Positions 6,485-60,347 are shown, counted from the first letter of the stretch. The stretch: 64,000 nt of DNA from Candidatus Woesearchaeota archaeon (GCA_964413095.1 CAYPRJ010000001.1:6975-70974); one strand, 5' to 3'. Program-made: numbers and translations. The notes: a model not told the origin generated them from the letters alone.

Positions 6485-7257
6485 AAGTTAATTCAGGTAA
6501 AAAAGGTGAAATTTCAACAAGATATTTAATTATGATAATAATTTTAATTGCAAGTTTTGCTATAATTTTGTTTTTTATTTTTAGATTGAATTTACAAGAA
6601 ACAGGTGATAAAGAAATTTGCCATAATTCTGTTGTTTTAAAATCAAAAGGAAAAGGACTTGTGGGAGATTTGGATTGCAAGACAAATTATGTTTGTATTT
6701 CTGGAGGAAAAGATTGTGAGGGAATAAATCCTACTACTACAATTAAGGTTGATCCTAAAAACAAAGAAGAAATTATGAAGGCAATAGCAGAAGAAATGGC
6801 AGATTGCTGGTGGATGTTTGGGGAAGGAGAATTGGATTATTTAGGTTTAGGAGAAGAAGGACTCTCAAAAACAACTTGCGCAATGTGTTCTATTATTAAG
6901 TTTGATGAAAAGATATTAAAAGAAGATTATAAAATAACTTATACAGAATTTTATGAATATCTTAATACAATTAAAAAAGATGAATCTCAGACTTATTTAA
7001 CTTATTTGTATGATGTTTATAATATTAAAGAACTTCAGGAAAACTTTTTCTTAGATAAGGATATTGAGAAAAATTTTATTTTAACAAAAGATAGATATGC
7101 AATTGTAACAGGAGTAAAAAAAGGAGCTACAATTAAGGTTTTTGGAAAAGATATTAATTTGCCTTGGTTTAAGAGAAATTTAATTCCTTCTTATTATATT
7201 AAATCTGAAAGTTTAAGTGAAGAGTTGGGTTGCGATGAGTATGTTACTAAGGCTTAG
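6481..7257 (+). CDS. pilin-like / Cys-containing secreted protein
   Basis: N-terminal KKGE then a hydrophobic helix. 258 aa with multiple Cys pairs in the mature part. Confidence 0.4.
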   Translation: MKVNSGKKGEISTRYLIMIIILIASFAIILFFIFRLNLQETGDKEICHNSVVLKSKGKGLVGDLDCKTNYVCISGGKDCEGINPTTTIKVDPKNKEEIMKAIAEEMADCWWMFGEGELDYLGLGEEGLSKTTCAMCSIIKFDEKILKEDYKITYTEFYEYLNTIKKDESQTYLTYLYDVYNIKELQENFFLDKDIEKNFILTKDRYAIVTGVKKGATIKVFGKDINLPWFKRNLIPSYYIKSESLSEELGCDEYVTKA

Positions 7258-22366: not shown

Positions 22367-24700
22367 ATGGATAATTTAACAAATAAAGATGTAATCTTTT
22401 CTGACTTTCATATACATTCACGATTTTCTAGAGCTTGTAGCAAAAATATTACTTTTGAGAATTTAACTAAGTGGGCGAAAATTAAAGGGCTTAACTTATT
22501 AGGTACTGGAGATTTTACTCATCCAATTTGGTTTAAAGAGATTAAGGATAAATTAATTGATAATGGAAATGGTTTTTACCTTGATTCTGCAACAGGTTTT
22601 CCGTTTATTATTACAGGAGAAATTTCTTTGATGTATTCTCAAGGAGGAAAAGGAAGAAGAGTTCATCTTGTATTGCTTGTTCCTTCAATTGAAATTGCTG
22701 AGAAGATAAATTCTTATTTTGATAAAAGAGGAAGAAGAGATTATGATGGCAGGCCTATTTTTAAAATTTCATGTGAAGATTTTGTTAAAGATATGATGGC
22801 TATCTCTGAAAGCATTGAAATAATCCCTGCTCACATTTGGACTCCCTGGTTTGGTATTTTCGGAAGCCAAACAGGATTTGATAGTTTAAAAGAAGCTTTT
22901 GGAGAACAAGTTGAAAATATTCATGCAATTGAAACCGGGATCTCATGTTATGATTCTAAAACAGAGATTTTAACAGAGAAAGGTTGGAAATTTTTTAAAG
23001 ATGTAAATAAATCTGATAATATTTGTACACTTGATCCAGAAAATTATAATATTGAATTTCAAAAGCCTCTTAATATTTTTAAAAGAAAATATAAAGGTAA
23101 AATGTATAAATTAGAAACTAAGAGAGTAAATCTTTTAGTTACCCCTAATCATAAGCTGTTTTATAGCCACTGTGATTTTAGAAAGAAACCAAATTTTTCT
23201 CTGAAAAAGGCAGAGTTATTATTCAATAAATCAAAAAGGTTTAAGAAGGATGGGAACTGGAGAGGGAAAAATCAAAAATATTTTGTTTTACCAAAAGTGA
23301 GAATTAAGCATGGAAGCAAATATTACTCAGGTGAGAGAAACAAAGAGATTAAGAAATTTCCAATTAAAGAGTGGTTGAGATTTTTTGGTTTTTGGATTGC
23401 CGAAGGATGTACACATCAGGGAAAGAATGGAGATTATGGGGTTTATATTTTTAATGATAAAAAAGATGTTCTTTTGGAAATGAAAAAGATTTTAGAGGGT
23501 TTTGGATACAGACCTTATCTTGATAAAAATATTCTTAGAGTAAGAGATTTTCAATTATTTAAATATCTAGATCAGTTTGGAAAATCTGGAGATAAATATA
23601 TCCCTTTAGAGATTAAATCTCTTTCTAAGGAATTGCTTCAACTTTTTTTTGATTATTATATTAAGGGAGATGGCCATAGATATGGAAGAAATAACAAAGG
23701 TCTTTCTGCAACAACTATCTCTAAAAAATTAAGAGATGATTTACAAGAAGTAGCTTTAAAATTAGGAATGTCTGCATATTATAAATTACATAATAAAAAA
23801 GGAACATCCATAAACTCTCTTCCAGTAGCAAAATCAAAAGGTTATAAACAATCTAAAGATTCTTGGAATGTTTATTTTATTAAAGAAAATCTTCATACAG
23901 TTATTCCCTCTACTATTAAAAAATGGAATTATAAAGAGAAATGGATTCAGTATAATGATTATGTTTATTGTGTTCAAGTTCCAAATCATGTGATTTATAT
24001 TAGAAGAAACGGCATTCCTGTTTGGTGTGGTAATTCAGACCCTGAAATGAATTGGAAAATTAAAGAGCTGACAGAGAATAATATTTCAATTGTTAGTTTT
24101 TCAGATGCTCACTCTCACTGGCCATTTAGATTAGGAAGAGAAACAACTATTTTCAAAAAAACAAATTCATATAAAGAAATTATAAGACAAATTAGAGAAA
24201 ATGATTTTATTGGAACAATTGAAACAGAGCCTGCCTATGGAAAATACCATTGGGATGGACACAGAAATTGTAATTTTTCTTGTTCTCCGAATGAAGCAAA
24301 AGAGCTTAATTATATTTGCCCTATTTGTGGAAATCCTTTGACAAGAGGAGTAGAAAACAGAGTTGAATTCTTAGCAGGAAATCCAGAGAATTTTAAACCA
24401 AAAAGTGCAAAATTTTTTTACAAACTTCTTCCTTTACATGAGCTAATTGTTTTAGTTTATGGAGGAAGTTTACAAAGCAAAAAAAACTGGGAAATTTATG
24501 ATTCTTTGATAAAAGAATTTGGAAATGAGTTCAATGTTTTGCTGAATGTTTCTAAAGAAAAATTATTAAGAATTAATTTAAATGATAAATTAGTTGAGAT
24601 GATTTTGAAAAACAGAGAGGGTAAGATTAAAGTCAAGCCAGGTTATGATGGTGTTTATGGAGAGGCATTGTTAGAAGAGAAACAATCAAAATTATTTTAA
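22367..24700 (+). CDS. endonuclease Q (EndoQ, PHP-fold) containing one intein
   Basis: The N-terminus DFHIHSRFSRACSKNITFENLTKWAKIKGLNLLGTGDFTHP matches the EndoQ PHP domain. C-terminal Zn finger CPICGNP. Intein blocks in between. Confidence 0.6.
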   Translation: MDNLTNKDVIFSDFHIHSRFSRACSKNITFENLTKWAKIKGLNLLGTGDFTHPIWFKEIKDKLIDNGNGFYLDSATGFPFIITGEISLMYSQGGKGRRVHLVLLVPSIEIAEKINSYFDKRGRRDYDGRPIFKISCEDFVKDMMAISESIEIIPAHIWTPWFGIFGSQTGFDSLKEAFGEQVENIHAIETGISCYDSKTEILTEKGWKFFKDVNKSDNICTLDPENYNIEFQKPLNIFKRKYKGKMYKLETKRVNLLVTPNHKLFYSHCDFRKKPNFSLKKAELLFNKSKRFKKDGNWRGKNQKYFVLPKVRIKHGSKYYSGERNKEIKKFPIKEWLRFFGFWIAEGCTHQGKNGDYGVYIFNDKKDVLLEMKKILEGFGYRPYLDKNILRVRDFQLFKYLDQFGKSGDKYIPLEIKSLSKELLQLFFDYYIKGDGHRYGRNNKGLSATTISKKLRDDLQEVALKLGMSAYYKLHNKKGTSINSLPVAKSKGYKQSKDSWNVYFIKENLHTVIPSTIKKWNYKEKWIQYNDYVYCVQVPNHVIYIRRNGIPVWCGNSDPEMNWKIKELTENNISIVSFSDAHSHWPFRLGRETTIFKKTNSYKEIIRQIRENDFIGTIETEPAYGKYHWDGHRNCNFSCSPNEAKELNYICPICGNPLTRGVENRVEFLAGNPENFKPKSAKFFYKLLPLHELIVLVYGGSLQSKKNWEIYDSLIKEFGNEFNVLLNVSKEKLLRINLNDKLVEMILKNREGKIKVKPGYDGVYGEALLEEKQSKLF
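22946..24034 (+). mobile_element. EndoQ intein (~363 aa) with LAGLIDADG domain; C-terminal boundary uncertain by 3 residues
   Basis: Starts CYDSKTEILTEKGWKF (block A), LAGLIDADG block FFGFWIAEGC, block F/G YVYCVQVPNHVIYIRRNGIPVWCGN|S. The terminal motif is atypical, GN rather than HN. Confidence 0.6.
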
Positions 24701-31882: not shown

Positions 31883-34800
31883 TTATAGCCGAAATTTCCC
31901 TCCTTTCATAAACTTCTTAGCCATTTTCATAAGTTGCTTTTGTGACATGGCTTTTTCTGGGTTCATACCAGACATGCCTTCTTTAATCATTTCATTAAGC
32001 ATTTTGTATTGTTTTAATAAAGAACGAACATCACTTCCATGAACTCCTGCTCCTTTTGCTATTCTGGCAATGCGGGAAGTTTCTTTTTCCAAGAGCTCTG
32101 GATTTTCTTTTTCTTCTGGTGTCATTGATTTAACTATATGCTCCCATTTTGAAATTTTAGCTTCTTGATTTTCTAAGAGATTTTCAGGAACCTTTTTTTC
32201 TATGTTCGCAAAACCAGGAACCATGTTTTTTATTTTATCTAAACCTCCCATAGAGCCCATTGATTTAACTTGTTCTATAACATCTTCAATAGAAAGTTTT
32301 CCTTCCTGAAGCCGCTTTTGCATAGCTTCTTGTTTTTTTCCTCCTGTTGCTGATTTTATTTTTTCAATCAAGGACTGCAAATCACCCATACCAAGAAGTC
32401 TTGAGAGAAAATTTTCTGGATTAAATTCTTCTATGTCATTTGCTTTTTCTCCTGTTCCTATAAAATAAACAGGAGCCTTCACTTCATTACAAGCTGTTAA
32501 AGCTCCTCCTGCCTTGGCAGTTGAGTCCATTCTCGTTATTATAACTCCAGAGATATTTACTGCTTCTTTAAATTGAGAAGCTTGTTGGTGTGCTGCCTGC
32601 CCAATATCTGCAGGCATAACTAGGATGTTTTCAGTTGGTTTTATTGTTTTTTCTAGTTGTTTTATCTCTTTAATTAGCTCTTTGTCTAAAGTGTGTCTAC
32701 CTGCTGTATCAATAAGAATTAAATCATAATCTTTCAGTTCTCTTTCAAACTTTTTCCAGATTTTTATTGGATTTTTTTCTTTGGCATCTATGAAGCAATT
32801 TAAATTATATTTTTCTGCAAGTTGTTTTAATTGTTCTGGAGCTGCTGGTCTATGTGTGTCCAATCCTACAAGAGCAACTTTGTGCCCTCTTTTAGCGTAA
32901 TAATTTCCAATTTTTGCAATTGTTGTTGTATTGTGCACAACTATTCCATCAGCCAAAAAACTGTGATTATCTTCCACTGTTAAATCATAAACAAATTTTT
33001 CATCATTTTTAATATGATTAATCTCTTTTACTGGAGTCCAACAAATATTAGAAGATGAAAGAAGTTCAAAAGATTTTAACAGAGGCTCTAATTTACTTTT
33101 ATGTATAATTTGTAAATATTGCATTCCTCTTTCAGTTAGAGAATTTTTAATTCCTTTTTCTACAAATCCTTCTTGTTTCAAATGTTTTAAAATACCATTA
33201 ACTGCCCTATATGAATATTTATTTGATATGGATATATTATTTGAGATATCATTTAAGATACCCAAAAAAACTCCTTCTTTTTTCATTCTGTAATATAATA
33301 GGAGTTTTTTCAATTGTTCTTTTGAGATCAATCCTTTTTTTTCATATATTCCATAGCTATAAACCGCATTTTCTTGTATTTCTCCTATTGAGAAACCAAG
33401 AGCAAACCTTAATGCTTTTAATGAATTTCCTAAAGGAATCATGTCTTGATTCCCTGCTCCTTGTATCTTTCCAATCTGATTATACTTTTCTGTTATTTTT
33501 TGTTTGTAATTTATCAAATATCCTATTTTTTCAGAATAAATCTCAGCATATTTTCCTTTAATATATAATGTCCAATAAGAAATATTATTAATAATCTTTT
33601 TAGATATAGATGATAATATTCCAAGTCTTCTAAGGAGTAAGGACATTTGTTGTAGATTTATGTAGCTTTCTGATGATACTTCTATATACCTCTTATTTTT
33701 GCTTGGTGAAGAATCACAATCAAAATAAGCTTTTATGAATGACCTAATTACTTCATTATTTGAAAGCATTATCTGCTTTGGGATTTCAAGATTTCTTCCT
33801 TTCTTTCCTACGTTAAATCCAAATTTCTGTAATATTTTAACTAAAGTAACTGAATTTAATCTAATGTAGTAAAGATTTTTACTTCTCTTATCTTTTGTTA
33901 AAGTAGGAGTTAAATTAAAAATAATTTTGGATAGCTCAATAATTCTATTTATTATTTCAATATCCTCGTTTGATATATGTATACTTCTTTCGCTAATATA
34001 ACCATCACCTATGACATATCCTATAAATTCTGACAATTCTTGAGTTAGATGAAGGGGAAAAGATATTATTTTACTACTCTTTACATGTTTTAATCTTAAG
34101 AAATTATATTTTTCTTTTTCTATAAATTCTATTGGTATTCTTCCTTTGTTAATAATTGAGGTAAGGTAACTATAATTTTTTTTATATTTTAAATTACTGT
34201 ATCCCTCCTTTATTGAATTGTATTTTTTTAAGATATTTTGTTTAGCTTCTTTGGGGGTTAAATAAGCTTCTAAATTGAGATTTTTTATATAATCGAATAA
34301 ATTTATTGTTTTCCCTTCTATTTCTATTTTATTGGGAATAGATATGAAATCCTCTTTTGTTAACTCATCAGCCCTTATTTGAGTGATTTGTCCATTTTTT
34401 AGGACAAAAAAGGGATGCTCTGGTGTTACTTTAATTGAAGAGTCATTTCCATTACCAATTTTGACTTCAATCAATTCATCTTTTTTTAATTTCCATAAAT
34501 AAGTCGCTTTTTTATTCTCAATTTTTAAAGTTTTAGGATTAAATGATGGGATCTGTAATCTTTTATCTTGTATGTTGATTATTTTTCCATCCTCTATATT
34601 TTCTTCTAAATCTTTATATCTTTCATATAATTTTTTTGCTTTGATTATCTCTCCATTTCCCAGCTGGATTTTACTTTCTGAATGAACACATTTTCCTGCT
34701 CCATATAAACCAAGGAGTATAATTCTGTTTTGTTCTTTGCTTTGTAAAGCTAATTGTTTATGCTCTCCAAGAATTTCAACTAACTCATCATGTAATAGTT

Positions 34801-35023
34801 TTATTATATGTTCTTTTTTGTCTATTTCTTTTATTTTTTCATCTAATGCAGTTTTTTTTATTTTATCACTTAAATCCTTAACTAAAGACACATTTACATC
34901 TGCTTCAATCATAGCTCTTTGCAAATCTCTGACAACAGAATCAACAAGATTTTTATCTAAGAATATAGCATTAGCTATTTTGTTTGTTGCTTTTCTTAAC
35001 ACTTCTCCTAATTTTTCTAGCAT
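31883..35023 (-). CDS. srp54: signal recognition particle protein SRP54 containing one intein
   Basis: N domain, G domain with GLYGAGK|..|TTTIAKIG, DTAGRH, and an M domain with a Met-rich C-terminus. 1046 aa because of the intein. Confidence 0.9.
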   Translation of the reverse strand: MLEKLGEVLRKATNKIANAIFLDKNLVDSVVRDLQRAMIEADVNVSLVKDLSDKIKKTALDEKIKEIDKKEHIIKLLHDELVEILGEHKQLALQSKEQNRIILLGLYGAGKCVHSESKIQLGNGEIIKAKKLYERYKDLEENIEDGKIINIQDKRLQIPSFNPKTLKIENKKATYLWKLKKDELIEVKIGNGNDSSIKVTPEHPFFVLKNGQITQIRADELTKEDFISIPNKIEIEGKTINLFDYIKNLNLEAYLTPKEAKQNILKKYNSIKEGYSNLKYKKNYSYLTSIINKGRIPIEFIEKEKYNFLRLKHVKSSKIISFPLHLTQELSEFIGYVIGDGYISERSIHISNEDIEIINRIIELSKIIFNLTPTLTKDKRSKNLYYIRLNSVTLVKILQKFGFNVGKKGRNLEIPKQIMLSNNEVIRSFIKAYFDCDSSPSKNKRYIEVSSESYINLQQMSLLLRRLGILSSISKKIINNISYWTLYIKGKYAEIYSEKIGYLINYKQKITEKYNQIGKIQGAGNQDMIPLGNSLKALRFALGFSIGEIQENAVYSYGIYEKKGLISKEQLKKLLLYYRMKKEGVFLGILNDISNNISISNKYSYRAVNGILKHLKQEGFVEKGIKNSLTERGMQYLQIIHKSKLEPLLKSFELLSSSNICWTPVKEINHIKNDEKFVYDLTVEDNHSFLADGIVVHNTTTIAKIGNYYAKRGHKVALVGLDTHRPAAPEQLKQLAEKYNLNCFIDAKEKNPIKIWKKFERELKDYDLILIDTAGRHTLDKELIKEIKQLEKTIKPTENILVMPADIGQAAHQQASQFKEAVNISGVIITRMDSTAKAGGALTACNEVKAPVYFIGTGEKANDIEEFNPENFLSRLLGMGDLQSLIEKIKSATGGKKQEAMQKRLQEGKLSIEDVIEQVKSMGSMGGLDKIKNMVPGFANIEKKVPENLLENQEAKISKWEHIVKSMTPEEKENPELLEKETSRIARIAKGAGVHGSDVRSLLKQYKMLNEMIKEGMSGMNPEKAMSQKQLMKMAKKFMKGGKFRL
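32930..34690 (-). mobile_element. SRP54 intein (587 aa) in the P-loop, with LAGLIDADG domain
   Basis: Begins CVHSESKIQLGNGE after GAGK and ends DGIVVHN|TTT. LAGLIDADG blocks are FIGYVIGDGYIS and the surrounding DOD blocks. Confidence 0.85.
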
Positions 35024-40584: not shown

Positions 40585-40720
40585 AGCCTGTGGAGGGATT
40601 CTAACCCCCGGCCTACTGCTGGCTTTCTGAACATGTAGTTGGCTCAGATACAAGGCAGTTGAGCATATCTTAACCTTTTAGAGTCACAGATATTCCGCTC
40701 TAACACTGAGCTACACAGGC
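40585..40720 (-). tRNA. tRNA-Thr(TGT) with two introns (~36 nt after the D-arm, ~28 nt at 37/38)
   Basis: Reverse complement: acceptor GCCTGTG/CACAGGC, D-arm GCTC..GAGC, anticodon stem ACTGC/GCAGT with loop CTTGTA|intron|A, T-arm GGGGG-TTAGAAT-CCCTC. Confidence 0.6.
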
Positions 40721-42610: not shown

Positions 42611-42719
42611 TGGTCCTGCGCGGAATTGAACCGCGGTTTTATCCATTTTGTGAACAGCTTACAGATTTAAGTGAACTGAACTCGTCAAGGACATGTCTTA
42701 GCCACTGGACTACAGGACC
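42611..42719 (-). tRNA. tRNA-Val(GAC) with ~37-nt anticodon-loop intron
   Basis: Reverse complement: acceptor GGTCCTG/CAGGACC, D-arm GTC-AGTGGCTAA-GAC, anticodon stem TGTCC/GGATA with loop TTGACG, T-arm CGCGG-TTCAATT-CCGCG. Confidence 0.6.
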
Positions 42720-43123: not shown

Positions 43124-43255
43124 ATGAAAAAATATCTGCTTTTAATTGAAGATGAGAAACTTTGGAACAAATTTAAGAATTCTATTAATAAAGATATCAA
43201 TACAGAGATAATTAATTTAATAAAGAAAAAACTCAATATAGAGGTAAAAAAATGA
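43124..43255 (+). CDS. ribbon-helix-helix (CopG-like) small regulator candidate
   Basis: MKKYLLLIEDEKLWNKFKNSINKDINTEIINLIKKKL has a beta-strand then two helices as in RHH proteins. The stop overlaps the ATG of the downstream gene. Confidence 0.4.
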   Translation: MKKYLLLIEDEKLWNKFKNSINKDINTEIINLIKKKLNIEVKK

Positions 43256-45069
43256 GAAATAAAGGACAGGTGACAATTTTTATAATAATTGCAATAATAA
43301 TAGTTAGTGCTGTGATTGGTTTTTTTGTTTTAAGAGATACAATTAGTTTTAAAATGATTCCAAGTAGTGTAGAGCCAGTTTATACTACTTTTCAATCTTG
43401 TTTAGAAGAAGAAGTTTTGATAGGTGTTAATGTTTTGGAAAGTCAAGGAGGTTATATAGAACTTCCTGGATTTAAAGCAGGTTCATATTACTCTCCTTTT
43501 TCTTCTCAGCTTAATTTTCTGGGAAATGAAATTCCCTATTGGTATTACTTATCTGCAAGCAACCTTGAAAAAGAACAAGTTCCTTCAAAAAAAGATATGG
43601 GGGAGCAACTTGAAAAATTTGTTGAAGAAAACATAAGAGAATGCGTATTTGATGAATATTATGAGCAGGGTTTTGAAATTGATATGGGAGAACCAGAAGC
43701 TCAAATTGTGATTTTAGATAAAAAAATAAACTTAAATTTAGATATGGATTTGAGTATTAGTAATGAAAAAGATAAAGTATTAGTTGAGAACCATGATATT
43801 TCTGTTGATTCAAATCTAGGAAATCTGTATGATTCTGCAAAAGAAATTTATGAAGAAGAGCAAGAGAATTTATTTTTAGAAAATTATGCTGTGGATAATT
43901 TAAGATTGTATGCTCCTGTTGATGGAACTGAGTTAAGCTGTTCTCCTGAAATTTGGAATGCAGATAATGTCTTTTCTGATTTGCAAGAAGCAATTGAGTT
44001 TAATACTTTGTCTTTGAAAACACAGGGAAATGAAAACGATTATTTTGTTATTGATACTTCTGTTGATAATACTAGATTTATTAATTCAAAAAATTGGCCA
44101 AGTTATTTTGAAGTTGTTCCTTCTGATGGAAATATGTTAATTGCAGAGCCAATAGGCAATCAAGAAGGACTAGGAATTTTAGGATTTTGTTATGTTCCTT
44201 ATCATTTTGTTTATGATTTAAAATATCCTGTTTTAGTTCAGGTTTATGAAGGAGAAGAAATTTTTCAGTTTCCTTTAGTAGTTTCTATAGAAAAAAATAA
44301 GCCAAGAAAACCATTGAATGCAAGTGCTGGGAATGTCAAGGAATCTGAAGTTTGCAAATATCAAACTACTCCTGTGGAAATTAGAACTTATGACAGAAAC
44401 TTAAATTCTATTGAATCAAAAATAACTTATGAATGTCTTGGTGAAACTTGTTATATTGGAGAAACTTCTTCTGGTGTTTTAGAGAATAATTTTCCTCAAT
44501 GTGTTAATGGTTATATAGTTGTAAAATCAAACGGTTTTAAAGAAACTAAGCATCTTTATTCAACAACTCAGTCAGGAAGTGTAGATATCATATTAGATAA
44601 ATTATATGAAATGGAACTTGAATTGAGTTTAGATGGAGCAAGTTATAATGGTGAAGCAATGGTTACTTTTATTTCTGGAGATGATTCAAAAACAATTATT
44701 TATCCAGAGCAGAATTCAATTGAACTAAGCGAGGGACAGTATGAAATACAAGTTTATATTTATGAAGAATCTTCTTTGAATCTGGAGTCAACTACTTCAG
44801 AACAGTGTGTTGATGTTTCTTCTGGTTTAGGCGGAGTTTTTGGAATAACAGAGGAGAAATGTTTTGAGATGGAAATTCCTTCGCAAATTGTTTCAAGTGC
44901 TTTATCAGGAGGAGGCAAAGAGAATTATTATATTCTAGAAAATGAATTAATAGACTCTAATATTATTAAGATAAACGCAGAAAGTTTACCAAAGCCAAAA
45001 ACAATTGAACAATTGCAAGATAATTATTTATTATTTGAAAATAAAGAGTTGGGAATTGTATTTAGATGA
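43252..45069 (+). CDS. large secreted pilin-like/adhesin protein with class III signal peptide
   Basis: MRNKG|QVTIFIIIAIIIVSAVIGFFVL is a KGQ prepilin-type N-terminus. 605 aa, Cys pairs. Confidence 0.45.
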   Translation: MRNKGQVTIFIIIAIIIVSAVIGFFVLRDTISFKMIPSSVEPVYTTFQSCLEEEVLIGVNVLESQGGYIELPGFKAGSYYSPFSSQLNFLGNEIPYWYYLSASNLEKEQVPSKKDMGEQLEKFVEENIRECVFDEYYEQGFEIDMGEPEAQIVILDKKINLNLDMDLSISNEKDKVLVENHDISVDSNLGNLYDSAKEIYEEEQENLFLENYAVDNLRLYAPVDGTELSCSPEIWNADNVFSDLQEAIEFNTLSLKTQGNENDYFVIDTSVDNTRFINSKNWPSYFEVVPSDGNMLIAEPIGNQEGLGILGFCYVPYHFVYDLKYPVLVQVYEGEEIFQFPLVVSIEKNKPRKPLNASAGNVKESEVCKYQTTPVEIRTYDRNLNSIESKITYECLGETCYIGETSSGVLENNFPQCVNGYIVVKSNGFKETKHLYSTTQSGSVDIILDKLYEMELELSLDGASYNGEAMVTFISGDDSKTIIYPEQNSIELSEGQYEIQVYIYEESSLNLESTTSEQCVDVSSGLGGVFGITEEKCFEMEIPSQIVSSALSGGGKENYYILENELIDSNIIKINAESLPKPKTIEQLQDNYLLFENKELGIVFR

Positions 45070-45362: not shown

Positions 45363-48300
45363 ATGAATAAGCAAAAAGCAAATAAAATTGAAAGATTTTT
45401 TTTAGCAGGAATTTTGTTAGTTGTTTTAATCTCTTTTGTTTCAGCGTCGTATTCTTTGTCAAATTTTGGTATTGGTGATTCTGATAAATCTTTAAGTTTT
45501 GATGATAAAAGTTGTGAAGCTGGACAGGATTTTCTAATAAAAATTTCTTCTTTTGGATGTACACCAAGTGTTGTTAGAAGTGATTTGCTTGAAGAACAAA
45601 ACGTTCCTGTTTTTTGTCAGCTTTCAGCCACAAAATTAAATCCTTTGATTGATGTTGAAGCTATTGAAAGTATTTCATTTAAAGGAGATTATCCAGATGC
45701 AGTTTCTGGTATTGGTTTTTATCCTGCAAAATCTGCTTTAAGTGCTAAACAAGATATTAATTATCCTGTTTTGAATAATATTGGTTATGTTACTATAGTC
45801 TTGAAAGAGCAAGCCAATGAATCTTCAATGCCAGATGTTGTCAAAGGAAATTTAACTGCTAATATAAAATATGATATAAAAAATGCTTTTGGTGTTGGAA
45901 AAGCTAATTTTTATCTTCCGAGTTTAACAGATGAAGAATGGGAAGAAAGATATTTTCAATATGGTTTTTGGGAGAAAAAAGGATATTTAAGAGCAGAAAA
46001 TATTGAATCAAACAGTGCAACAATTTCTGTTTATAATAAAAATTTGCAAAAAACATCTAGTGTTAATTTAGAAAAAGGAAAAACTTCTAAAGAAATTTAT
46101 ATTCCAGGTTTTGATTATTGTCAGGGAAGTTTACAGTTGAGGTTAGATAGTGTAGAAGCTGCAGATACAAGAGCAAGATTAAGAGTAAATGAAGATATTG
46201 TTGAAGTTGCAAGAAGAGAGAAGTTTTTAGATAATAAATGTACTGTTATTGGTTTAGAAAGAGATGGTTTAGTTCAAAATGTAGAAATTAGATGTGATGA
46301 AGATGAAGGAAGGAAAACCATTACACTAAGAATTGAGCCAAAAATTAAAATTAGTATTGATGGAGAAGAAAGAGAAGTAGGAGTTGGAGATTATTTATAT
46401 GAAGATGAGGAAAAAAATGAATTTGTGTATTTAGGGCATATAGGAGCAAAAAAAGACAGCACCAACATAGAAGATATTTATTTATTTGTTGTTAGATTAC
46501 CTGAGTTTGAAAAAAAATTAAGCCAAGATAAAATTTCTTCTATTGGAAATTTTGTTGATAAACTTGAGTATAAAGATTTAACTGGAAATGTAGTGACAGA
46601 TGTGCTGTTAAATTCTTTGAGATTATTTGGAGCAGGAAGTGAAGCATTATTTAGGCGTATTGTTGAAGGACAAGCTTATAGAATTGTTTCTTATCCTGAA
46701 ATAGAAGAGGTTTTTGGGCAAGAAATTCAAATAATTGATTTTGTTGATGTTCAAGATAAAGAACTTAATGGAGCAGAAGAATATTATCAAAATGCTATAG
46801 GTGATTATAAAAATATAGTTGAGAATTTTGCTGGAGAAAAATATCCAGAAAATAGCAGAGTTAACTTAGGAGAAGAAGCTTTATATCAGCAGATAATTCT
46901 TGCAAGAGATTTAGGACAAGGAAAAACTATGGTTGATTTATGCGAGAACTTTAAAGAAAAATATCCTGATTCTGATATAGACCTTAGTGATTGTGATGAT
47001 AGTTACAAACTTTCTAATTCAGAGATTTCAACAGATTATGTTAAAATTAATGGAAAAACTGAGAAAATTTCTTTTGATGGAATTTATGAACCAGGATTTT
47101 ATGATTATGGAGCAGAAGTTTTAGTTGAGGGGCCTAATGGTGAAAGGTCATTATTGTATCTTTCAAAGGATCAAACTATTAATTTGGATGATTTTAGAGA
47201 TGAAGAAAATCTAAATGAATTTATTCAACTAGTTTCTCTTGATGATGATTCTGCTAGATTAAAGATAAATCTTGCTGAAACTGGTTTGAAAAAATTGATT
47301 TCTTCAGATAATAAAAATCTGAAAAAAGATATTTCTGAAAGTTTTGGAAGTGATTATATTTTTACATTAAAAGATATACATCTTGAAAAATCAGCAAAAG
47401 TTTCTGTGATTCCTAATATTAATAATGTTGGAACAGAGGCGAATTTTAGTTTTCAAATTGGAATAGAAAAAAGATGGAATTTAACTTTAGCTCCTGATAC
47501 AATTGAAAAAAGGATTGATGCTTTGAATGGAACAATTGGCAAATTGCAGAATATTTCTGATACTCTTGGAGACGTAATTAAAGTTGGAAAAACTGCATGT
47601 CTTGGTACAGGAGCTGTTTTAACTATTAAAAATTTCTTAGCTAATCTTGAGGGAACAGGAATTGCAAGGCAAAAAGTTATGAGAGGAGAAAATGGTTGGT
47701 ATGAGAAATGCACTGATTTAGTTGAAAAAGGAGAATATGTTTCTTTAGAACAATGTTTTCTTGAAAACTCTGATAAGATTGATAAAGATGTTGAAGAGGT
47801 AACTGAAATAATAAATAAACAAGATAAAGAAATAAAAAAAATTCAAGAGCAGTTCACCGAGAGTAAATTTTTATCTGAAAAAGTTGTTGATACAGATAAA
47901 TTTATGGAAGAATTCACTGAAAAAGTTCAAGAAGAGATTTCTGTTTTAGGAAATAGTTTTGAAGATCCAAGAGGTAAGGGAGAGAGTATTAATATTGAAG
48001 AAATGAGAAAAACTCTTTCTTATGAAGGATGGAAACAAGGTTATTATAGTACAGAGAAACTTAAAGAAATAGAACTTGCTTTAATGGTTTTGGAATCTGG
48101 TGCTGATGAAGATTTGAAAAATATTTATAGGGAGAGACTTTATTCTGACCTTTCAGAAGTGCAAGCGAACTCAGAAAGTTTTGCAGAAATTTCAAATTTA
48201 GCAAATGACTTGAATGTTCAATCAAGCCAGATTTCATTTTTAGAAGTTGGAGAAAGAGTTAAGGAAATTACTTATGGTGGTTTAACAAATAAAGATACAG

Positions 48301-51300
48301 AAATACAAGAAATTGATGAGAATGTTCCTGTTTCTGTTTTGCAAACTTCTAGGGGAGATAAGCTTATACTTATTTTAGATGATTCTTCAGGAACAGAGAT
48401 TTTACCTATTAAAAGAGATGAAGATGACTCTTTAGTTGTTTATGGTGTGAATGGCAATAGGCTCTCTTCAGAAGAGCTTTCTGGAAGTTTAGTTAAAGAA
48501 TTAGATCAGATTTATTTTAAGAAATATGATAAATCTTCTTATGAGAATTCTTATAAAAACGCAGAATTGAAATATTATGAAACAGAGCCGTACAAAGGTT
48601 TTCCTGCTATTGTGCCTTTTGATTTAGGTAATGGTTGGTATGCAGCAACAAAACAAACAATTTCAACTGGAGCAAGTATTGCAAGTTATGATAAATCTGG
48701 GCAAGTTAATAGTTTTTATTTGTGCAATGTTGGAAAAAATGGAATACAGGAATTTTACTCTTCAGCAGGAGATGATAATTGCAGAGGATTTAATTTAGGA
48801 ACAGGGCAAGCTTATGACCAGTTTGCTGGTTTAAAAGAGAAAGAAACAAAAGATTTAGTGGAGTGTGCAGTTGATGCTATTGAACAAGCTTCTGATGCAT
48901 ATGAATCAGAGGTTAGTAGAGTTAGAATAAGAACTAGTTGTGGAGGAACAGTAACTTTAAAGGTTGGTGAGCCAGCAGCAGATATTCCTGATATTCAGTG
49001 CCAGGATTTTATGTCTCCAAAGGATTGTAATTTGCTTTTTAATGTTTGTGATCCTTTTATTTGCCCTTCAAGTAGGTGTGATTTTGGAGGAGCCTACCCT
49101 GTAAAAGATGTTGTTCAATCAGGAATAATTGGAAGTTTAATTCTTTGTCTTCCAAATGCCCAAGAAGGAATTGCTGTCCCAGTTTGTATAACTGGAATAA
49201 AAGCAGGAACTGATGGCTGGCTTTCTGTTATGGAATCTTATAGAGATTGTTTGCAAGAAAGTTTAGAGACAGGAAAAAATATGGGAATATGTGATGAAAT
49301 GCATAGTGTTTATTTATGTGAGTTTTTCTGGAAGCAAGCACTTCCTTTAGCTGATTTAGCAGTACCAAAAGTATTGGAGGCTTTTTCAGGACAAGGTACT
49401 CAAGGTGGAGGAGAATATCTTTCTGTTCAAAATGCTTGGGAAAATGCAGAAAATTCTTTAGATTATTTTACTCAGTCTTATGCAACTGAATCTTATAAAG
49501 CATTTCAGGCAAGATCTACAGGAGAAGCAGGAACTTTAGTTTGCAAAACATTTGCTTCAGCAGCATATGCTGATACAGGAAGTTTATTTGATGCAATGAC
49601 TGAAGCAGAATCACCAGCACAGTATCATGGGAACTTTGAAGAGATTACTTTTAGCACTGTAACTTCACCTCCAACTTCTCATTATAAGGTGTTTTATCAT
49701 ATTTATGCAGGAGAAAATTCTGGAGCTTATTATAAAGTTTATTTGAAAGGAAGTTCTGAAAGCTTTTATCAGGATGCTTCAAGAACCAGACAAGTAGCTT
49801 CAGGATATGTGGCTGCAGGAGATTATGCTTCTGAGACAGAAGATTTTACTGCTCCTTCTGGCTATACTCAGATGTGTATAAATGTTAATGGAGAAGAAGA
49901 GTGCGGTTTCAAAGAAGTTTCAACTTCTTTTGCTGCTGATTATATTACAGATAGTTATGCGAAAGAGCAGATTGAAAAATCAGATATTACTACAGAGGAG
50001 GAATGTGTTTCAGGAACTGTCAGTGTTTATAGTTTGCTTGATTTGAATCTTCAAAGTTCTGTTGAGGAATTAATTGACCCTGCTATTTATGAAAAAGGAA
50101 TAACAAGAGTTTGTGCTACAGACAATCCTGGAAAAGGAACTGATCCTTATTCAGGAACTGAAGATTCAAGGTGGGTTGAAGTTGGTTATTGTGATTCAGA
50201 GAATATGAAATGCTGGCTTGATACTAAAAGCATTAAAGATGCAATAGAACTTGAAGGTGTAGAAGAAGAAGCATTAGATACAGTTACAAAAAGTTATATG
50301 GATATTTTGAGAGAAGAAGGAGATTATCTTTCTGAAAAGGAGTTTGAAAAGAAACTTGAAGAAATTGAGGAAGAAGAAAATTCAGAAGAAAAAATTAAGT
50401 TAGTTGAAGAAATTCTTGACAGAGTTTTCCTTAATAATAAAAGAGCTTACTTGTTATTGTTAAGAGGAAATGCTTATGGAGATTTGGCTTTAAATGCATT
50501 TAGAGGAGTAATATCTAAAGTAACTGGAGGAGAAGCTGGTGGAAGTGCTGGTGTTGGAGATGAGACTGGTGCTGAGACAGGTGTTGAAGGAGATATGTCA
50601 GATATAGAGAAAACTTATGAAATAGATAGAATTGGTTTTAAAATAGATGATAAAGAAGCTGAGTTTAAAGAAGATGTTAAAAAGCAAGCAGATGAAGATG
50701 TTGAGCTTGTTGTAGAATATGAGTATAATTGTGAATATGCAGAGTATCAAGTTTTTTCTCCTCAAGGTTTCTTTAAGGGTTTAGTTAGTGGTTTTGATTG
50801 GAATAAGCAAGTTTCTGGAAGAATTGATAAAGAAAGAGTGGACTTGCTTTTGAATAAACTTGATGAAGAGACTTATTATGTTAATGGTTATTGTTTTGAT
50901 GAAAAAGGGAATTCAAAGAAAACTAAATCTAATAATTTAATTGTAGCAGAAGTTTCTGGAGAAGAAATTATTGAAACTCCTTCTTTGTTTGATAGGTATG
51001 AAAAAATTGTGGATGAAAATGATGAGAATTTGTTTGATAAATATGCTGAAGAGAATTTGCCAGAAGGATGGAATCCTAATAAATTTAAAGCTTTACTTGT
51101 TGCTATTGCTATAAGACAGAGTAATCTTGGTTATCCTGAAGGAATTTATGATCCAAGATGGATTATGGAATATGGCTGGGAAGTAAGAGAAGACAAATTA
51201 CAAAGAATAGAAAAGTATGTTTGCCAAGAAGGAACTGATGTTAATGGATTATCTTCTGAAGAAGTTTTAAAGTGTGCAGAAGCACAAATTAAAGATGCTT

Positions 51301-51533
51301 CTAAAACTTTGAAGTTTGCTTTGGATAAGAGTGTGAATAAAGAAAGTGATTACTCAAAATGTGATAAAACAATTTATAGGTTAAGAAGTGATTCTTTGAT
51401 AAAATGTGTTTTAAGTGTTTATATGACTGGAGAGAATTCTAAGATTATTGGAGAGAGTGAAGGAGAAAAATATGCTAAAGAAGTAATGGAAATAATGAAA
51501 GAGTGGGAAGATTATTTTTCTAAGAATTCTTAA
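45363..51533 (+). CDS. giant secreted surface protein (2056 aa) with Cys-rich central module
   Basis: N-terminal signal peptide FFLAGILLVVLISFVSASYS, a 6.2-kb uninterrupted ORF, a central dense Cys cluster (CQDFMSPKDCNLLFNVCDPFICPSSRCDF...), and an acidic linker EEEENSEEKIK. Confidence 0.6.
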   Translation: MNKQKANKIERFFLAGILLVVLISFVSASYSLSNFGIGDSDKSLSFDDKSCEAGQDFLIKISSFGCTPSVVRSDLLEEQNVPVFCQLSATKLNPLIDVEAIESISFKGDYPDAVSGIGFYPAKSALSAKQDINYPVLNNIGYVTIVLKEQANESSMPDVVKGNLTANIKYDIKNAFGVGKANFYLPSLTDEEWEERYFQYGFWEKKGYLRAENIESNSATISVYNKNLQKTSSVNLEKGKTSKEIYIPGFDYCQGSLQLRLDSVEAADTRARLRVNEDIVEVARREKFLDNKCTVIGLERDGLVQNVEIRCDEDEGRKTITLRIEPKIKISIDGEEREVGVGDYLYEDEEKNEFVYLGHIGAKKDSTNIEDIYLFVVRLPEFEKKLSQDKISSIGNFVDKLEYKDLTGNVVTDVLLNSLRLFGAGSEALFRRIVEGQAYRIVSYPEIEEVFGQEIQIIDFVDVQDKELNGAEEYYQNAIGDYKNIVENFAGEKYPENSRVNLGEEALYQQIILARDLGQGKTMVDLCENFKEKYPDSDIDLSDCDDSYKLSNSEISTDYVKINGKTEKISFDGIYEPGFYDYGAEVLVEGPNGERSLLYLSKDQTINLDDFRDEENLNEFIQLVSLDDDSARLKINLAETGLKKLISSDNKNLKKDISESFGSDYIFTLKDIHLEKSAKVSVIPNINNVGTEANFSFQIGIEKRWNLTLAPDTIEKRIDALNGTIGKLQNISDTLGDVIKVGKTACLGTGAVLTIKNFLANLEGTGIARQKVMRGENGWYEKCTDLVEKGEYVSLEQCFLENSDKIDKDVEEVTEIINKQDKEIKKIQEQFTESKFLSEKVVDTDKFMEEFTEKVQEEISVLGNSFEDPRGKGESINIEEMRKTLSYEGWKQGYYSTEKLKEIELALMVLESGADEDLKNIYRERLYSDLSEVQANSESFAEISNLANDLNVQSSQISFLEVGERVKEITYGGLTNKDTEIQEIDENVPVSVLQTSRGDKLILILDDSSGTEILPIKRDEDDSLVVYGVNGNRLSSEELSGSLVKELDQIYFKKYDKSSYENSYKNAELKYYETEPYKGFPAIVPFDLGNGWYAATKQTISTGASIASYDKSGQVNSFYLCNVGKNGIQEFYSSAGDDNCRGFNLGTGQAYDQFAGLKEKETKDLVECAVDAIEQASDAYESEVSRVRIRTSCGGTVTLKVGEPAADIPDIQCQDFMSPKDCNLLFNVCDPFICPSSRCDFGGAYPVKDVVQSGIIGSLILCLPNAQEGIAVPVCITGIKAGTDGWLSVMESYRDCLQESLETGKNMGICDEMHSVYLCEFFWKQALPLADLAVPKVLEAFSGQGTQGGGEYLSVQNAWENAENSLDYFTQSYATESYKAFQARSTGEAGTLVCKTFASAAYADTGSLFDAMTEAESPAQYHGNFEEITFSTVTSPPTSHYKVFYHIYAGENSGAYYKVYLKGSSESFYQDASRTRQVASGYVAAGDYASETEDFTAPSGYTQMCINVNGEEECGFKEVSTSFAADYITDSYAKEQIEKSDITTEEECVSGTVSVYSLLDLNLQSSVEELIDPAIYEKGITRVCATDNPGKGTDPYSGTEDSRWVEVGYCDSENMKCWLDTKSIKDAIELEGVEEEALDTVTKSYMDILREEGDYLSEKEFEKKLEEIEEEENSEEKIKLVEEILDRVFLNNKRAYLLLLRGNAYGDLALNAFRGVISKVTGGEAGGSAGVGDETGAETGVEGDMSDIEKTYEIDRIGFKIDDKEAEFKEDVKKQADEDVELVVEYEYNCEYAEYQVFSPQGFFKGLVSGFDWNKQVSGRIDKERVDLLLNKLDEETYYVNGYCFDEKGNSKKTKSNNLIVAEVSGEEIIETPSLFDRYEKIVDENDENLFDKYAEENLPEGWNPNKFKALLVAIAIRQSNLGYPEGIYDPRWIMEYGWEVREDKLQRIEKYVCQEGTDVNGLSSEEVLKCAEAQIKDASKTLKFALDKSVNKESDYSKCDKTIYRLRSDSLIKCVLSVYMTGENSKIIGESEGEKYAKEVMEIMKEWEDYFSKNS

Positions 51534-51720: not shown

Positions 51721-51858
51721 TGCGGGAGAAAGGATTCGAACCTTCGCAGGCACTAAGCCAACAGGTTTCTTCGAGTTAGTTTGCGTTATTTGTGAGACAT
51801 AATCTCTCGCAATCTTCTCGCCTAAGCCTGTCCCGTTTGACCACTCCGGCACTCCCGC
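51721..51858 (-). tRNA. tRNA-Leu(TAG), class II with long variable arm, 54-nt intron at 37/38
   Basis: Reverse complement: acceptor GCGGGAG/CTCCCGC, anticodon stem ACAGG/CCTGT with loop CTTAGG|intron|A, variable arm TGGCTTAGTGCCTGC, T-arm GAAGG-TTCGAAT-CCTTT. Confidence 0.7.
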
Positions 51859-55504: not shown

Positions 55505-55738
55505 TTGATTCTTATTTTTAGAATGAGCATGCTTGGAGATTATATGTGTCCTTTTATTGATGGATGTGAACCTTGTATTTCAAAAAATGATTGTCCTTCT
55601 GATCCTGAAAATTGTTCATACTACCAAATGATGATTTTTAAAGCTAAACACGAGATGAGAGATATGTCTAACAAAGAATTAACTGATTACTTTGATACAA
55701 AGGATTTAGCTTTAGAAACATGGGATTTTGGTGATTAA
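55505..55738 (+). CDS. hypothetical small Cys-containing protein
   Basis: 77-aa ORF (CPFIDGCEPCISKNDCPSDPENC). Confidence 0.2.
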   Translation: MILIFRMSMLGDYMCPFIDGCEPCISKNDCPSDPENCSYYQMMIFKAKHEMRDMSNKELTDYFDTKDLALETWDFGD

Positions 55739-55913
55739 TTTTTTGAATTGGTTAATAGAAAGATTTTAAATATTCTATTTTTCTTTGATTAATAGTGAGC
55801 CCCTGTAGCTCACGTAAGAAACCAAGGTTCCTTGACGTTCAACCTCCTTTGTGGCACTGTTGGGTGATTTCAAGTTGCCTTCGGTGAAATCGCGGACGCT
55901 ACAGGAGACAAGC

Positions 55914-56037
55914 CCCTGTAGCTCAGCCTGGATAGAGCGACTGCCTTCTATGCTATTGGCAGTGTCGTACATTGTTGCGATTATTTGTCTTCAGCGGATA
56001 GCAGTAGGCCGCAGGTTCGAATCCTGTCGGGGGCATT
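55914..56037 (+). tRNA. tRNA-Arg(TCT) with 49-nt intron at 37/38
   Basis: Acceptor GCCCCTG/CGGGGGC, D-arm GCTC-AGCCTGGATA-GAGC, anticodon stem ACTGC/GCAGT with loop CTTCTA|intron|A, T-arm GCAGG-TTCGAAT-CCTGT. Confidence 0.65.
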
Positions 56038-56128
56038 TAGGATTCGATAAATTAGTTTAAACGCATTCAAATAGGAAGGTTAAGCGAAGGAAACTTCGTG
56101 TCCTCGCTTCGAATCCTGTCAGGGGCAT

Positions 56129-56986
56129 TTGAAAAAAATGAAAAGCAAAAAAGAGGTGGAATTAAAATTTCCCTTAAGTAAAAAAGAAAAATATGTAGCA
56201 ATGCTTGCTCCTAGTTTTGTTGTTGATTTCTCTTATCCTAAAATAATTCATCAACTTAGGGAATTAGGTTTTGATAAAATTGTTGAATTGACTTTTGGAG
56301 CAAAAATGATTAATAGAGATTATCATAAAAAATTGAAAAAATCTAAAGAATTAGTTATTGCAAGTGTTTGTCCTGGTGTTGTTGAAACAATAAAAAATAA
56401 ATTTCCAAGGTATAAAAAAAATCTTATTAAAGTTGACAGTCCCATGATTGCTACAGCAAAGATTTGTAAAAAAATTTATCCAAATTATAAGATAGTCTTT
56501 ATTTCTCCTTGTGATTATAAAAAAACAGAAGCACAGAAAACAAATTATATTGATTATGTTGTTGACTATGGAAGATTGAAAAAATTACTCAAAAAAATTA
56601 AGATTAAAAAGAAGGGAAAAATTTTGTTTGATAAATTTTATAATGATTACACTAAAATTTATCCTGTTGCAGGAGGGCTCTCAAAAACAGCGAATCTTAA
56701 AGGATCTTTAAAAGAAAATGAGGTTATGATTATTGATGGAATTAATGATGTTATTAAATTTCTTAAAAAACCAAAAAAAGGAATAAGGTTTCTTGATGCT
56801 ACTTTTTGCAAGGGAAGTTGTGTTGGAGGTCCTTGTATAAATTCTAAATTACCTATTAAATTGAGAAAAAAGAAGATTTTGAATTATTTAAAAAAAGCAA
56901 AACAAGAGGATATTCCTGATACTAGAAAAGGAATTATTAAGAGAGCTAAAGGAATTTCTTTTTCTTCTAATTTCCCAAGCAAATAA
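56129..56986 (+). CDS. minimal [FeFe]-hydrogenase H-cluster domain-like protein (HydA/Narf-like, 285 aa)
   Basis: LAPSFVV..LRELGFDKIVELTFGAKM, L1-like IASVCPGVV (TSCCP with the first Cys replaced by Val), L2 ISPCDYKKTEAQ (MPCxxKxxE) and L3 FCKGSCVGGP (CxxGCxxGG). Confidence 0.6.
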   Translation: MKKMKSKKEVELKFPLSKKEKYVAMLAPSFVVDFSYPKIIHQLRELGFDKIVELTFGAKMINRDYHKKLKKSKELVIASVCPGVVETIKNKFPRYKKNLIKVDSPMIATAKICKKIYPNYKIVFISPCDYKKTEAQKTNYIDYVVDYGRLKKLLKKIKIKKKGKILFDKFYNDYTKIYPVAGGLSKTANLKGSLKENEVMIIDGINDVIKFLKKPKKGIRFLDATFCKGSCVGGPCINSKLPIKLRKKKILNYLKKAKQEDIPDTRKGIIKRAKGISFSSNFPSK

Positions 56987-57017: not shown

Positions 57018-57090
57018 GCGGAGGTGGCACAGTGGCTACTGCATCTGGTTGCAGCCCAGATTTTCGTGGGTTCGAATCCCACCCTCCGCT
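57018..57090 (+). tRNA. tRNA-Cys(GCA), intronless
   Basis: Acceptor GCGGAGG/CCTCCGC, anticodon arm TCTGG-TTGCAGC-CCAGA, T-arm GTGGG-TTCGAAT-CCCAC. 73 nt. Confidence 0.85.
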
Positions 57091-60114: not shown

Positions 60115-60153
60115 TTTTGGAGATTGGTTTTTTTGTTTAAAAGAATTACTATG

Positions 60154-60225
60154 ATGTCTCTGGAGGGAGTTTAACCCTCGACTTCTGCCTCATGAGAGCA
60201 GCGCTCTGACGCTGAGCTACAGAGA
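60154..60225 (-). tRNA. tRNA-Met(CAT) (elongator or Ile2-type), intronless
   Basis: Reverse complement: acceptor GTCTCTG/CAGAGAC, D-arm GCTC-AGCGTCA-GAGC, anticodon arm CTGCT-CTCATGA-GGCAG, T-arm GAGGG-TTAAACT-CCCTC. Confidence 0.8.
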
Positions 60226-60347
60226 CAAGATTACTAGAGAAAATTGATTTAAAAGTTTTAGTATTAAAGGCTTTGATAAAACATAAGAATTTCTTAACTT
60301 CCTGCTCATTACTCGCAGGTTTTTTTAGATTTAATAGAACTATCTCA

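Follow-up and report, generated by a model that had tools for sequence, protein, structure and literature searches.

The question raised by this locus is whether an H-cluster domain of 285 residues, standing alone and with an altered L1 motif, belongs to a very small [FeFe] hydrogenase of the kind known from DPANN archaea, as an earlier note on this DNA had suggested, or to a Narf/Nar1-like protein, a sensor or an unusual catalytic variant, which the same note had entertained. The stretch analysed (the window) comprises 64,000 nucleotides and is archaeal, as its genes for TFB, ribosomal protein S8e, an Sm-like protein, RadA, eIF2alpha and RIO kinase and its GC content of ~29% indicate. The neighbours of the gene, here called hydA, encode TFB, S8e, the Sm-like protein, RNase Z, a UPF0047 protein and glycyl-tRNA synthetase, and RadA with two inteins, eIF2alpha, RIO kinase and FtsY are encoded elsewhere in the window; close homologs of the window protein carry the labels Pacearchaeota, Woesearchaeota or Nanoarchaeota.

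The open reading frame 56129..56986 (plus strand) encodes 285 aa when read from TTG, and its translation contains, in order, every H-cluster peptide block quoted in the earlier note. The true start is most likely the ATG at 56138, yielding 282 aa, rather than TTG 56129, since this TTG directly adjoins a 23-nt repeat resembling a tRNA 3' end, since an identical database protein (P0001) has 282 aa and since the N-termini of relatives line up with M4 of the window protein in a full-length alignment of 29 relatives. Residue numbers are counted from TTG 56129 throughout, and the features of the gene are collected in Table 1.

Table 1. Features of the hydA-like gene and its product, with window coordinates and CpI equivalents (CpI numbering of the LAPSFVV block from the phmmer alignment and known motifs)
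Feature	Residues	Position	Strand	Basis or remarks
hydA-like CDS, probable ultraminimal (group E) [FeFe] hydrogenase, most likely start		56138..56986	+	ORF, PF02906, P0001, 29-relative alignment
LAPSFVV block	26-32	56204..56224	+	A27-P28-S29 = CpI A230-P231-S232, [2Fe] pocket lining
L1-like IASVCPGVV	77-85	56357..56383	+	V80 at 56366-56368, C81 at 56369-56371
S104-P105-M106 = CpI S323-P324-Q325, proximal CN- contact region	104-106	56438..56446	+	alignment
L2 motif VFISPCDYKKTEAQ	123-136	56495..56536	+	S126/M353, C128/C355, K131/K358, E134/E361
FDKFYNDYTKIYPVAGGLSKT, most conserved family-specific block	167-187	56627..56689	+	nearly all residues invariant
L3 motif LDATFCKGSCVGGP	222-235	56792..56833	+	T225/M497, C227/C499, C231/C503 (CpI alignment domain 3)

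A Pfam search, suggested earlier as a check, matched the protein to PF02906 (Fe_hyd_lg_C) from end to end (profile positions 2-245 of 245) with an E-value of 2.6e-38 and 132.5 bits, the cut-off for this model being 22.1 bits. PF02906 is the sole Pfam domain, in agreement with the description of the protein as a stand-alone H-domain lacking accessory ferredoxin domains; of the six cysteines in total the first is C81, the N-terminus has none, and neither a ferredoxin motif nor a second cluster motif was found in the protein. CpI (6gly/6gm4) and TmHydA were matched by phmmer against PDB sequences, and in the alignment to CpI all four ligands of the [4Fe-4S]H cluster are kept (C81=C300, C128=C355, C227=C499, C231=C503), as are the pocket residues K131 (K358), E134 (E361) and S104-P105 (S323-P324).

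The same alignment places V80 opposite the relay cysteine C299, which bears out the claim that in L1 the relay cysteine has become valine and the ligating cysteine has been retained. The remainder of the group A proton pathway is replaced as well, with Y65 for E279, I100 for S319, K68 for E282 and S72 for R286, both active-site methionines are exchanged (S126 for M353, T225 for M497), and the TSCCP motif of group A is absent. Among 201 close relatives, C81, C128, C227, C231, K131, E134, P28, S104 and P105 are invariant and S29 is kept in 198, while position 80 holds Val in 156, Pro in 18, Ala in 15, Thr in 12 and Cys in none. In 31 distant short relatives the ligand cysteines are kept in 30-31, C128, K131 and E134 being invariant there too. 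The altered L1 is therefore real, although, judged by these alignments, the loss of the relay cysteine is a trait of the whole clade and not the mark of a special variant or a peculiarity of the window gene. C113 was considered as a substitute relay cysteine and rejected: it is invariant in close relatives but V/I/L/C in distant short ones, aligns to CpI S332 and probably occupies a buried helix position with no relay function.

An AlphaFold2 model calculated from 30 family sequences (pLDDT 78, pTM 0.80) was compared with the PDB using Foldseek, and the top matches were all [FeFe] hydrogenases (E ~1e-12 to 1e-13, TMq 0.65-0.70), including the HydA H-domains of HydABC and CpI. Residues 167-187 form the least confident part of the model (pLDDT 50-57); they lie outside every CpI alignment made, and from motif order we take their GGL to be, probably, the TGGV segment that lines the H-cluster in CpI.

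The NCBIfam model for group A (TIGR02512) gave the window protein 47.9 bits against a cut-off of 405.95, and the best NCBIfam match, the group B model TIGR04105, gave 135.7 bits against a cut-off of 450 and covered only model positions 218-459, which correspond to the H-domain, leaving the N-terminal ferredoxin-like part unmatched. The N-terminal 2x[4Fe-4S] region and the C-terminal FeS (PF04060), PAS or output domain of groups C and D are absent. With 282-285 aa and one Pfam domain, the size and architecture are those of group E, the [FeFe] hydrogenases described by Greening et al. from Iainarchaeota, Micrarchaeota and Nanoarchaeota as H-domain-only proteins whose length averages 286 aa (Greening et al., 2024, Cell 187:3357, PMC11216029).

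According to the text of that paper, the enzyme of the Iainarchaeote 'Ca. Forterrea multitransposorum' (Fm) binds one [4Fe-4S] cluster, assembles the H-cluster with [2Fe]adt as followed by FTIR and evolves H2; it works in both directions, with H+ reduction favoured, and among characterised homologs the group C protein TmHydS is closest to it, at 28% identity (Greening et al., 2024). The text also gives CABMGN01 sp902385635 as a Nanoarchaeota example of group E, with one [FeFe] hydrogenase per such genome (Greening et al., 2024). A scan of GTDB species genomes recovered contig CABMGN010000008.1 (L060), whose protein of 288 aa shows 56% identity to that of the window (317 bits), has an L1 reading SSVCPG and is encoded in the same S8e-Sm-RNaseZ-HydA-GlyRS neighbourhood. 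As the CABMGN01 genome has, by that account, a single [FeFe] hydrogenase, this gene is the published one, and the window gene is its ortholog; group E membership was assessed through this genome accession and the NJ tree described below, without the paper's own sequence set. The suggestion of a very small DPANN hydrogenase thus agrees with the Pfam match, the CpI alignment, the fold, the identity and synteny with CABMGN01 and the position within the clade.

The Fm enzyme itself is probably represented by P0285, a protein of 286 aa (~33 kDa) that is 45% identical to the window protein, has CGNCP as its L1 and is encoded on an 839-kb contig of 24.4% GC recurring in many samples. The window protein shares with group E (Fm, CABMGN01) the H-domain-only build of ~286 aa, the single [4Fe-4S] cluster with a [2Fe] site (predicted here), non-canonical proton-transfer residues, a DPANN host, the lack of HydEFG nearby and the adjacency to 2-oxoacid:ferredoxin oxidoreductase (OFOR) genes in relatives. 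Nothing categorical sets it apart: the relay position holds Val here and Asn in the probable Fm protein, and the window copy has tRNA genes on either side and a housekeeping neighbourhood in place of OFOR genes. The context of P0285 in the probable 'Ca. Forterrea' genome (L081/L082 6974-12383), where a Tyw1-like radical-SAM gene precedes it in the same orientation and a NifU-SufD-SufB-SufC Fe-S assembly cluster is convergent with it, is unlike both neighbourhood types of the Pacearchaeal loci.

A search of 5.8 billion proteins returned 1092 matches, the best 120 of which are 261-314 aa long, contain no Pfam domain besides PF02906 and share 65-73% identity with the window protein; few among these 120 are named, and those that are bear the label Pacearchaeota. 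Relatives are encoded in at least 192 GTDB species genomes. Exhaustive searching of 50%-identity representatives added ~30 short clusters (256-316 aa, 33-58% identity), and beyond these lie proteins of 550-880 aa whose H-domain starts near residue 65 and which combine Fer4, the H-domain, PF04060 FeS and PAS, sigma-54-activator or His-kinase domains, an architecture seen in the putative sensory groups C and D. The nearest of these multi-domain relatives are 33-38% identical to the window protein, and nearly all long relatives lack a cysteine at the relay position, CCP occurring in 2 of ~20 listed. In an NJ tree that was computed from 242 columns and is rough and without support values, the short proteins form one clade, apart from the PAS/sigma54/His-kinase-fused and group-B-like proteins, and the window protein falls within its Pacearchaeal subclade.

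Two types of neighbourhood were found among 80 related loci. The first, TFB-S8e-Sm-RNaseZ-HydA-(GlyRS), occurs in 30, the window and CABMGN01 included. In the second, found in 36, hydA lies near oorA-oorB, the genes for the alpha and beta subunits of a two-subunit OFOR, usually downstream of them on the same strand and often with an AMP-forming acetyl-CoA synthetase gene upstream. Among the 30 loci of this second type with a measurable gap, 11 have an overlap of 4-19 nt between the stop of oorB and the start of hydA, and a further three have a gap of 9-44 nt. Both neighbourhood types are mixed in the NJ tree, and a common function of the two sets of hydA genes is likely for this reason. The operon linkage to OFOR, as read from gene order, supports a fermentative, H2-evolving role; the text of Greening et al. 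likewise describes OFOR genes as frequently adjacent to group E genes and proposes for group E that reductant from 2-oxoacid oxidation is disposed of by proton reduction (Greening et al., 2024).

None of the genes for OFOR, acetyl-CoA synthetase or ferredoxin was found in the 64-kb window itself. Nor did the window yield candidates for HydE, HydF or HydG, as the earlier note had stated: no ORF of at least 300 aa has a radical-SAM or HydF-like domain, the CxxxCxxC motif is absent from window ORFs of at least 250 aa and the ferredoxin motif is absent from the real ORFs. Nine radical-SAM ORFs located close to hydA in related loci (1.18 Mb in total) were considered as hidden maturases, and none is HydE or HydG, the NCBIfam assignments being MoaA-like, SPASM, B12-rSAM and AmmeMemoRadiSam. 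No small ferredoxin gene was found near hydA in most related loci. According to the text of Greening et al., only 5 archaeal genomes out of the 130 that encode hydrogenases possess a complete HydEFG set, an alternative maturation route is proposed, and other organisms without HydEFG have been reported to make active enzyme (Greening et al., 2024).

On the grounds of the domain, its cluster ligands and pocket residues, the fold, the orthology to a published gene and the operon linkage to OFOR in relatives, we consider it probable, with good confidence, that the product of the gene is a monomeric group E [FeFe] hydrogenase, built of the H-domain only, from a DPANN archaeon of the Pacearchaeota/Nanoarchaeota type, and that it works in the direction of H2 evolution. 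In such an enzyme C81, C128, C227 and C231 would hold the [4Fe-4S] part of the H-cluster, with C231 bridging to the diiron subsite, and the latter would sit in a pocket formed with the kept CN-/CO-contacting residues A27-P28-S29, S104-P105, K131 and E134. Because accessory clusters (F-clusters) are lacking, and by analogy with algal HydA1, the exposed [4Fe-4S]H cluster would take up electrons directly from a soluble low-potential donor; this donor, which we infer along with the proton path and the in-vivo maturation in the source organism, would most likely be reduced ferredoxin or the two-subunit OFOR itself. Protons would be reduced to H2 and fermentative reductant thereby disposed of. The canonical group A route for these protons is impossible with V80, Y65, I100, K68 and S72 in place of C299, E279, S319, E282 and R286, and a different path would have to serve, for which the invariant Y65/N62/H66 or the near-invariant FDKFYNDYTKIYP..GGLSKT block (FYNDYTK...GGLSK, residues 167-187) are candidates.

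HydA1 of Chlamydomonas reinhardtii (group A, M1), at ~457 aa formerly the smallest characterised [FeFe] hydrogenase, is similar in having the H-domain only and no F-clusters, which obliges ferredoxin to dock at the H-cluster domain itself. However, HydA1 keeps TSCCP and the full proton pathway, whereas the window protein is ~170 aa shorter, has condensed loops and matches HydA1 only marginally in phmmer (E ~0.2). In TamHydS (group D) the relay site is occupied by Ala and a different glutamate relay is thought to be used, and exchange of the cysteine for Ala in group A enzymes lowers H2 turnover (PMC11803613).

Several points weigh against the group E reading. The window contains no gene for HydEFG, ferredoxin or OFOR, the gene stands in a housekeeping (type 1) context and not in an OFOR operon, none of the nine radical-SAM ORFs of the related loci is HydE or HydG, the relay cysteine, whose exchange for Ala lowers turnover in group A, is absent together with the whole canonical proton pathway, and the model is of low confidence in residues 167-187, where conservation is highest. 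In addition, the paper's text describes activity for Fm only, the Nanoarchaeota enzyme 'Na' having been expressed and found poorly soluble, and documents none for the Val-type Pacearchaeal subclade (Greening et al., 2024).

The lack of HydEFG within reach and the aprotic Val, Pro, Ala or Thr at the relay site leave room, in our estimate, for an unlikely reading in which the Pacearchaeal group E proteins either rely on an undiscovered HydEFG-independent maturation or are no hydrogenases in vivo and act, with their [4Fe-4S] cluster, as an electron-accepting subunit for the translationally coupled two-subunit OFOR; if this were true, the short homologs on CPR/Patescibacteria-like contigs would represent a shared DPANN/CPR minimal redox module. 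We rate as distinctly unlikely a [4Fe-4S]-only redox protein, a ferredoxin surrogate or OFOR acceptor that would carry no diiron subsite in vivo, its genome on this view lacking HydEFG. The absence of maturases from the window and from beside hydA in the 80 related loci would suit such a protein, as would the rarity of full HydEFG sets in archaeal genomes, the translational coupling of hydA to oorB, the lack of a small ferredoxin gene near hydA in most loci and the relay position devoid of a protic residue. However, the equivalents of K358, P231/S232 and S323/P324, whose contacts in group A enzymes are confined to the diiron subsite, are invariant in ~230 sequences spanning 33-100% identity, and this strict conservation of the diiron pocket is hard to square with a plain [4Fe-4S] carrier. 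Moreover, as described in the text of Greening et al., Fm accepts [2Fe]adt and turns over, and active enzyme has been reported from organisms that lack HydEFG (Greening et al., 2024).

An H2 sensor or regulator like the group C/D 'HydS' proteins, the sensory role raised in the earlier note, appears very improbable. Among multi-domain proteins, those of groups C/D (TmHydS, TamHydS) do come closest in H-domain sequence, the nearest multi-domain relatives of the window protein being Fer4, H-domain and FeS fusions with PAS, sigma-54 or His-kinase domains, and nearly all long relatives likewise have no cysteine at the C299 position. In TamHydS, moreover, the relay cysteine is replaced by Ala and M353 is Ser (S191) as in the window protein, M497 is non-Met in TamHydS and TmHydS alike, and the canonical proton pathway is missing (PMC11803613). 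Yet the window protein has neither the N-terminal 2x[4Fe-4S] and C-terminal FeS/PAS or other output and signalling domains of these proteins nor an adjacent regulator, the short proteins form a clade of their own, their genes stand in operons with catabolic OFOR/ACS genes in 36 of the 80 loci, and Fm is biased to H+ reduction, unlike TmHydS, in the account of Greening et al. (2024).

Nar1/NARF proteins (CIAO3) belong to the same PF02906 fold family, are larger partners in the eukaryotic CIA pathway defined by an extra N-terminal Cys-rich [4Fe-4S] domain, and in eukaryotic Narf the first L1 cysteine is missing as it is here. An Fe-S cluster assembly or transfer factor of this type without H2 chemistry, to which the convergent NifU-SufD-SufB-SufC genes beside P0285 in the probable Forterrea locus might also point, is nevertheless barely credible, since the window protein has no N-terminal Cys-rich domain, only six cysteines and no second cluster motif, the host is archaeal, SUF genes are associated with hydA in none of the 80 Pacearchaeal loci and, by the text of Greening et al., one family member, Fm, is a demonstrated hydrogenase (Greening et al., 2024).

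As a group E hydrogenase, the window gene is an ortholog of an enzyme class that was already published and partly characterised in 2024, and the finding lacks novelty. No H2 catalysts smaller than the group E enzymes are known, and the group is of interest for biotechnology and for reductant disposal in genome-reduced DPANN archaea. The window adds one ortholog and confirms that the loss of the relay cysteine is clade-wide, raising no question beyond those of the 2024 work; the family could be used to address how the H-cluster matures without HydEFG and which residues deliver protons.

Short homologs were also encountered on contigs of clearly bacterial character. Two H-domain-only proteins of ~287-290 aa, P0305 (L083 8001-8873) and P0385 (L084 8001-8864), share 42-44% identity with the window protein; both are encoded on long contigs of this kind and fall within the short-protein clade of the NJ tree. 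One such contig, of 376 kb, is labelled 'Candidatus Dojkabacteria' and has MurG, ClpB and MiaA as neighbours, and the other, of 472 kb, encodes a Mur ligase, OFOR alpha/beta and an ADP-forming acetyl-CoA synthetase; further short homologs are labelled Parcubacteria or Patescibacteria. The ultraminimal type may be common to DPANN archaea and CPR bacteria, and CPR/Patescibacteria are not mentioned in the main text of the 2024 paper (Greening et al., 2024). Some records with close homologs (L057, L018 and L062, 56-66% identity) are labelled 'Candidatus Paceibacterota bacterium', 'bacterium' and 'Fusobacteriaceae bacterium'; the Paceibacterota record has the OFOR-ACS neighbourhood of the archaeal loci, and these records are probably mislabelled or mis-binned Pacearchaeota contigs.

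Several minor features of the window were also recorded. Between RNase Z and hydA, a Cys-rich 77-aa ORF (55505-55738) contains CPFIDGCEPCISKNDCPSDPENC; it was considered as a redox partner and rejected, having no Pfam match and no homolog in the 80 related loci, and it may encode a small metal-binding protein specific to this lineage, or else be spurious. A tRNA gene with a 51-nt anticodon-loop intron (55912..56035) was found by Rfam and missed by ARAGORN. Its first 15 nt (AGCCCCTGTAGCTCA) are repeated 113 nt upstream and its last 23 nt (TTCGAATCCTGTC[G/A]GGGGCATTT) 92 nt downstream, where the copy extends precisely to the hydA TTG (window 55798-56130); these partial copies could be scars of integration or recombination, or could derive from another tRNA gene that is split or degenerate. 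Of the window's six tRNA genes, four (40585-40720, 42611-42719, 51721-51858 and 55912-56035) have long introns, as judged from their span of 109-138 nt and their detection by the covariance model only, and the only intron-free ones are tRNA-Cys (57018..57090), immediately downstream of hydA, and tRNA-Met (60153..60227). The RadA/Rad51 gene (16159-20166, 1335 aa) has two inteins with LAGLIDADG homing-endonuclease domains, and an ORF at 22367-24700 (777 aa) has intein-splicing and LAGLIDADG domains with no host-protein domain recognised. Several other very large ORFs, as are typical of DPANN surface or unknown proteins, lie at 1931-4114 (727 aa), 7247-9253 (668 aa) and 43252-45069 (605 aa), these three without a Pfam domain, and at 31883-35023 (1046 aa) and 45363-51533 (2056 aa).
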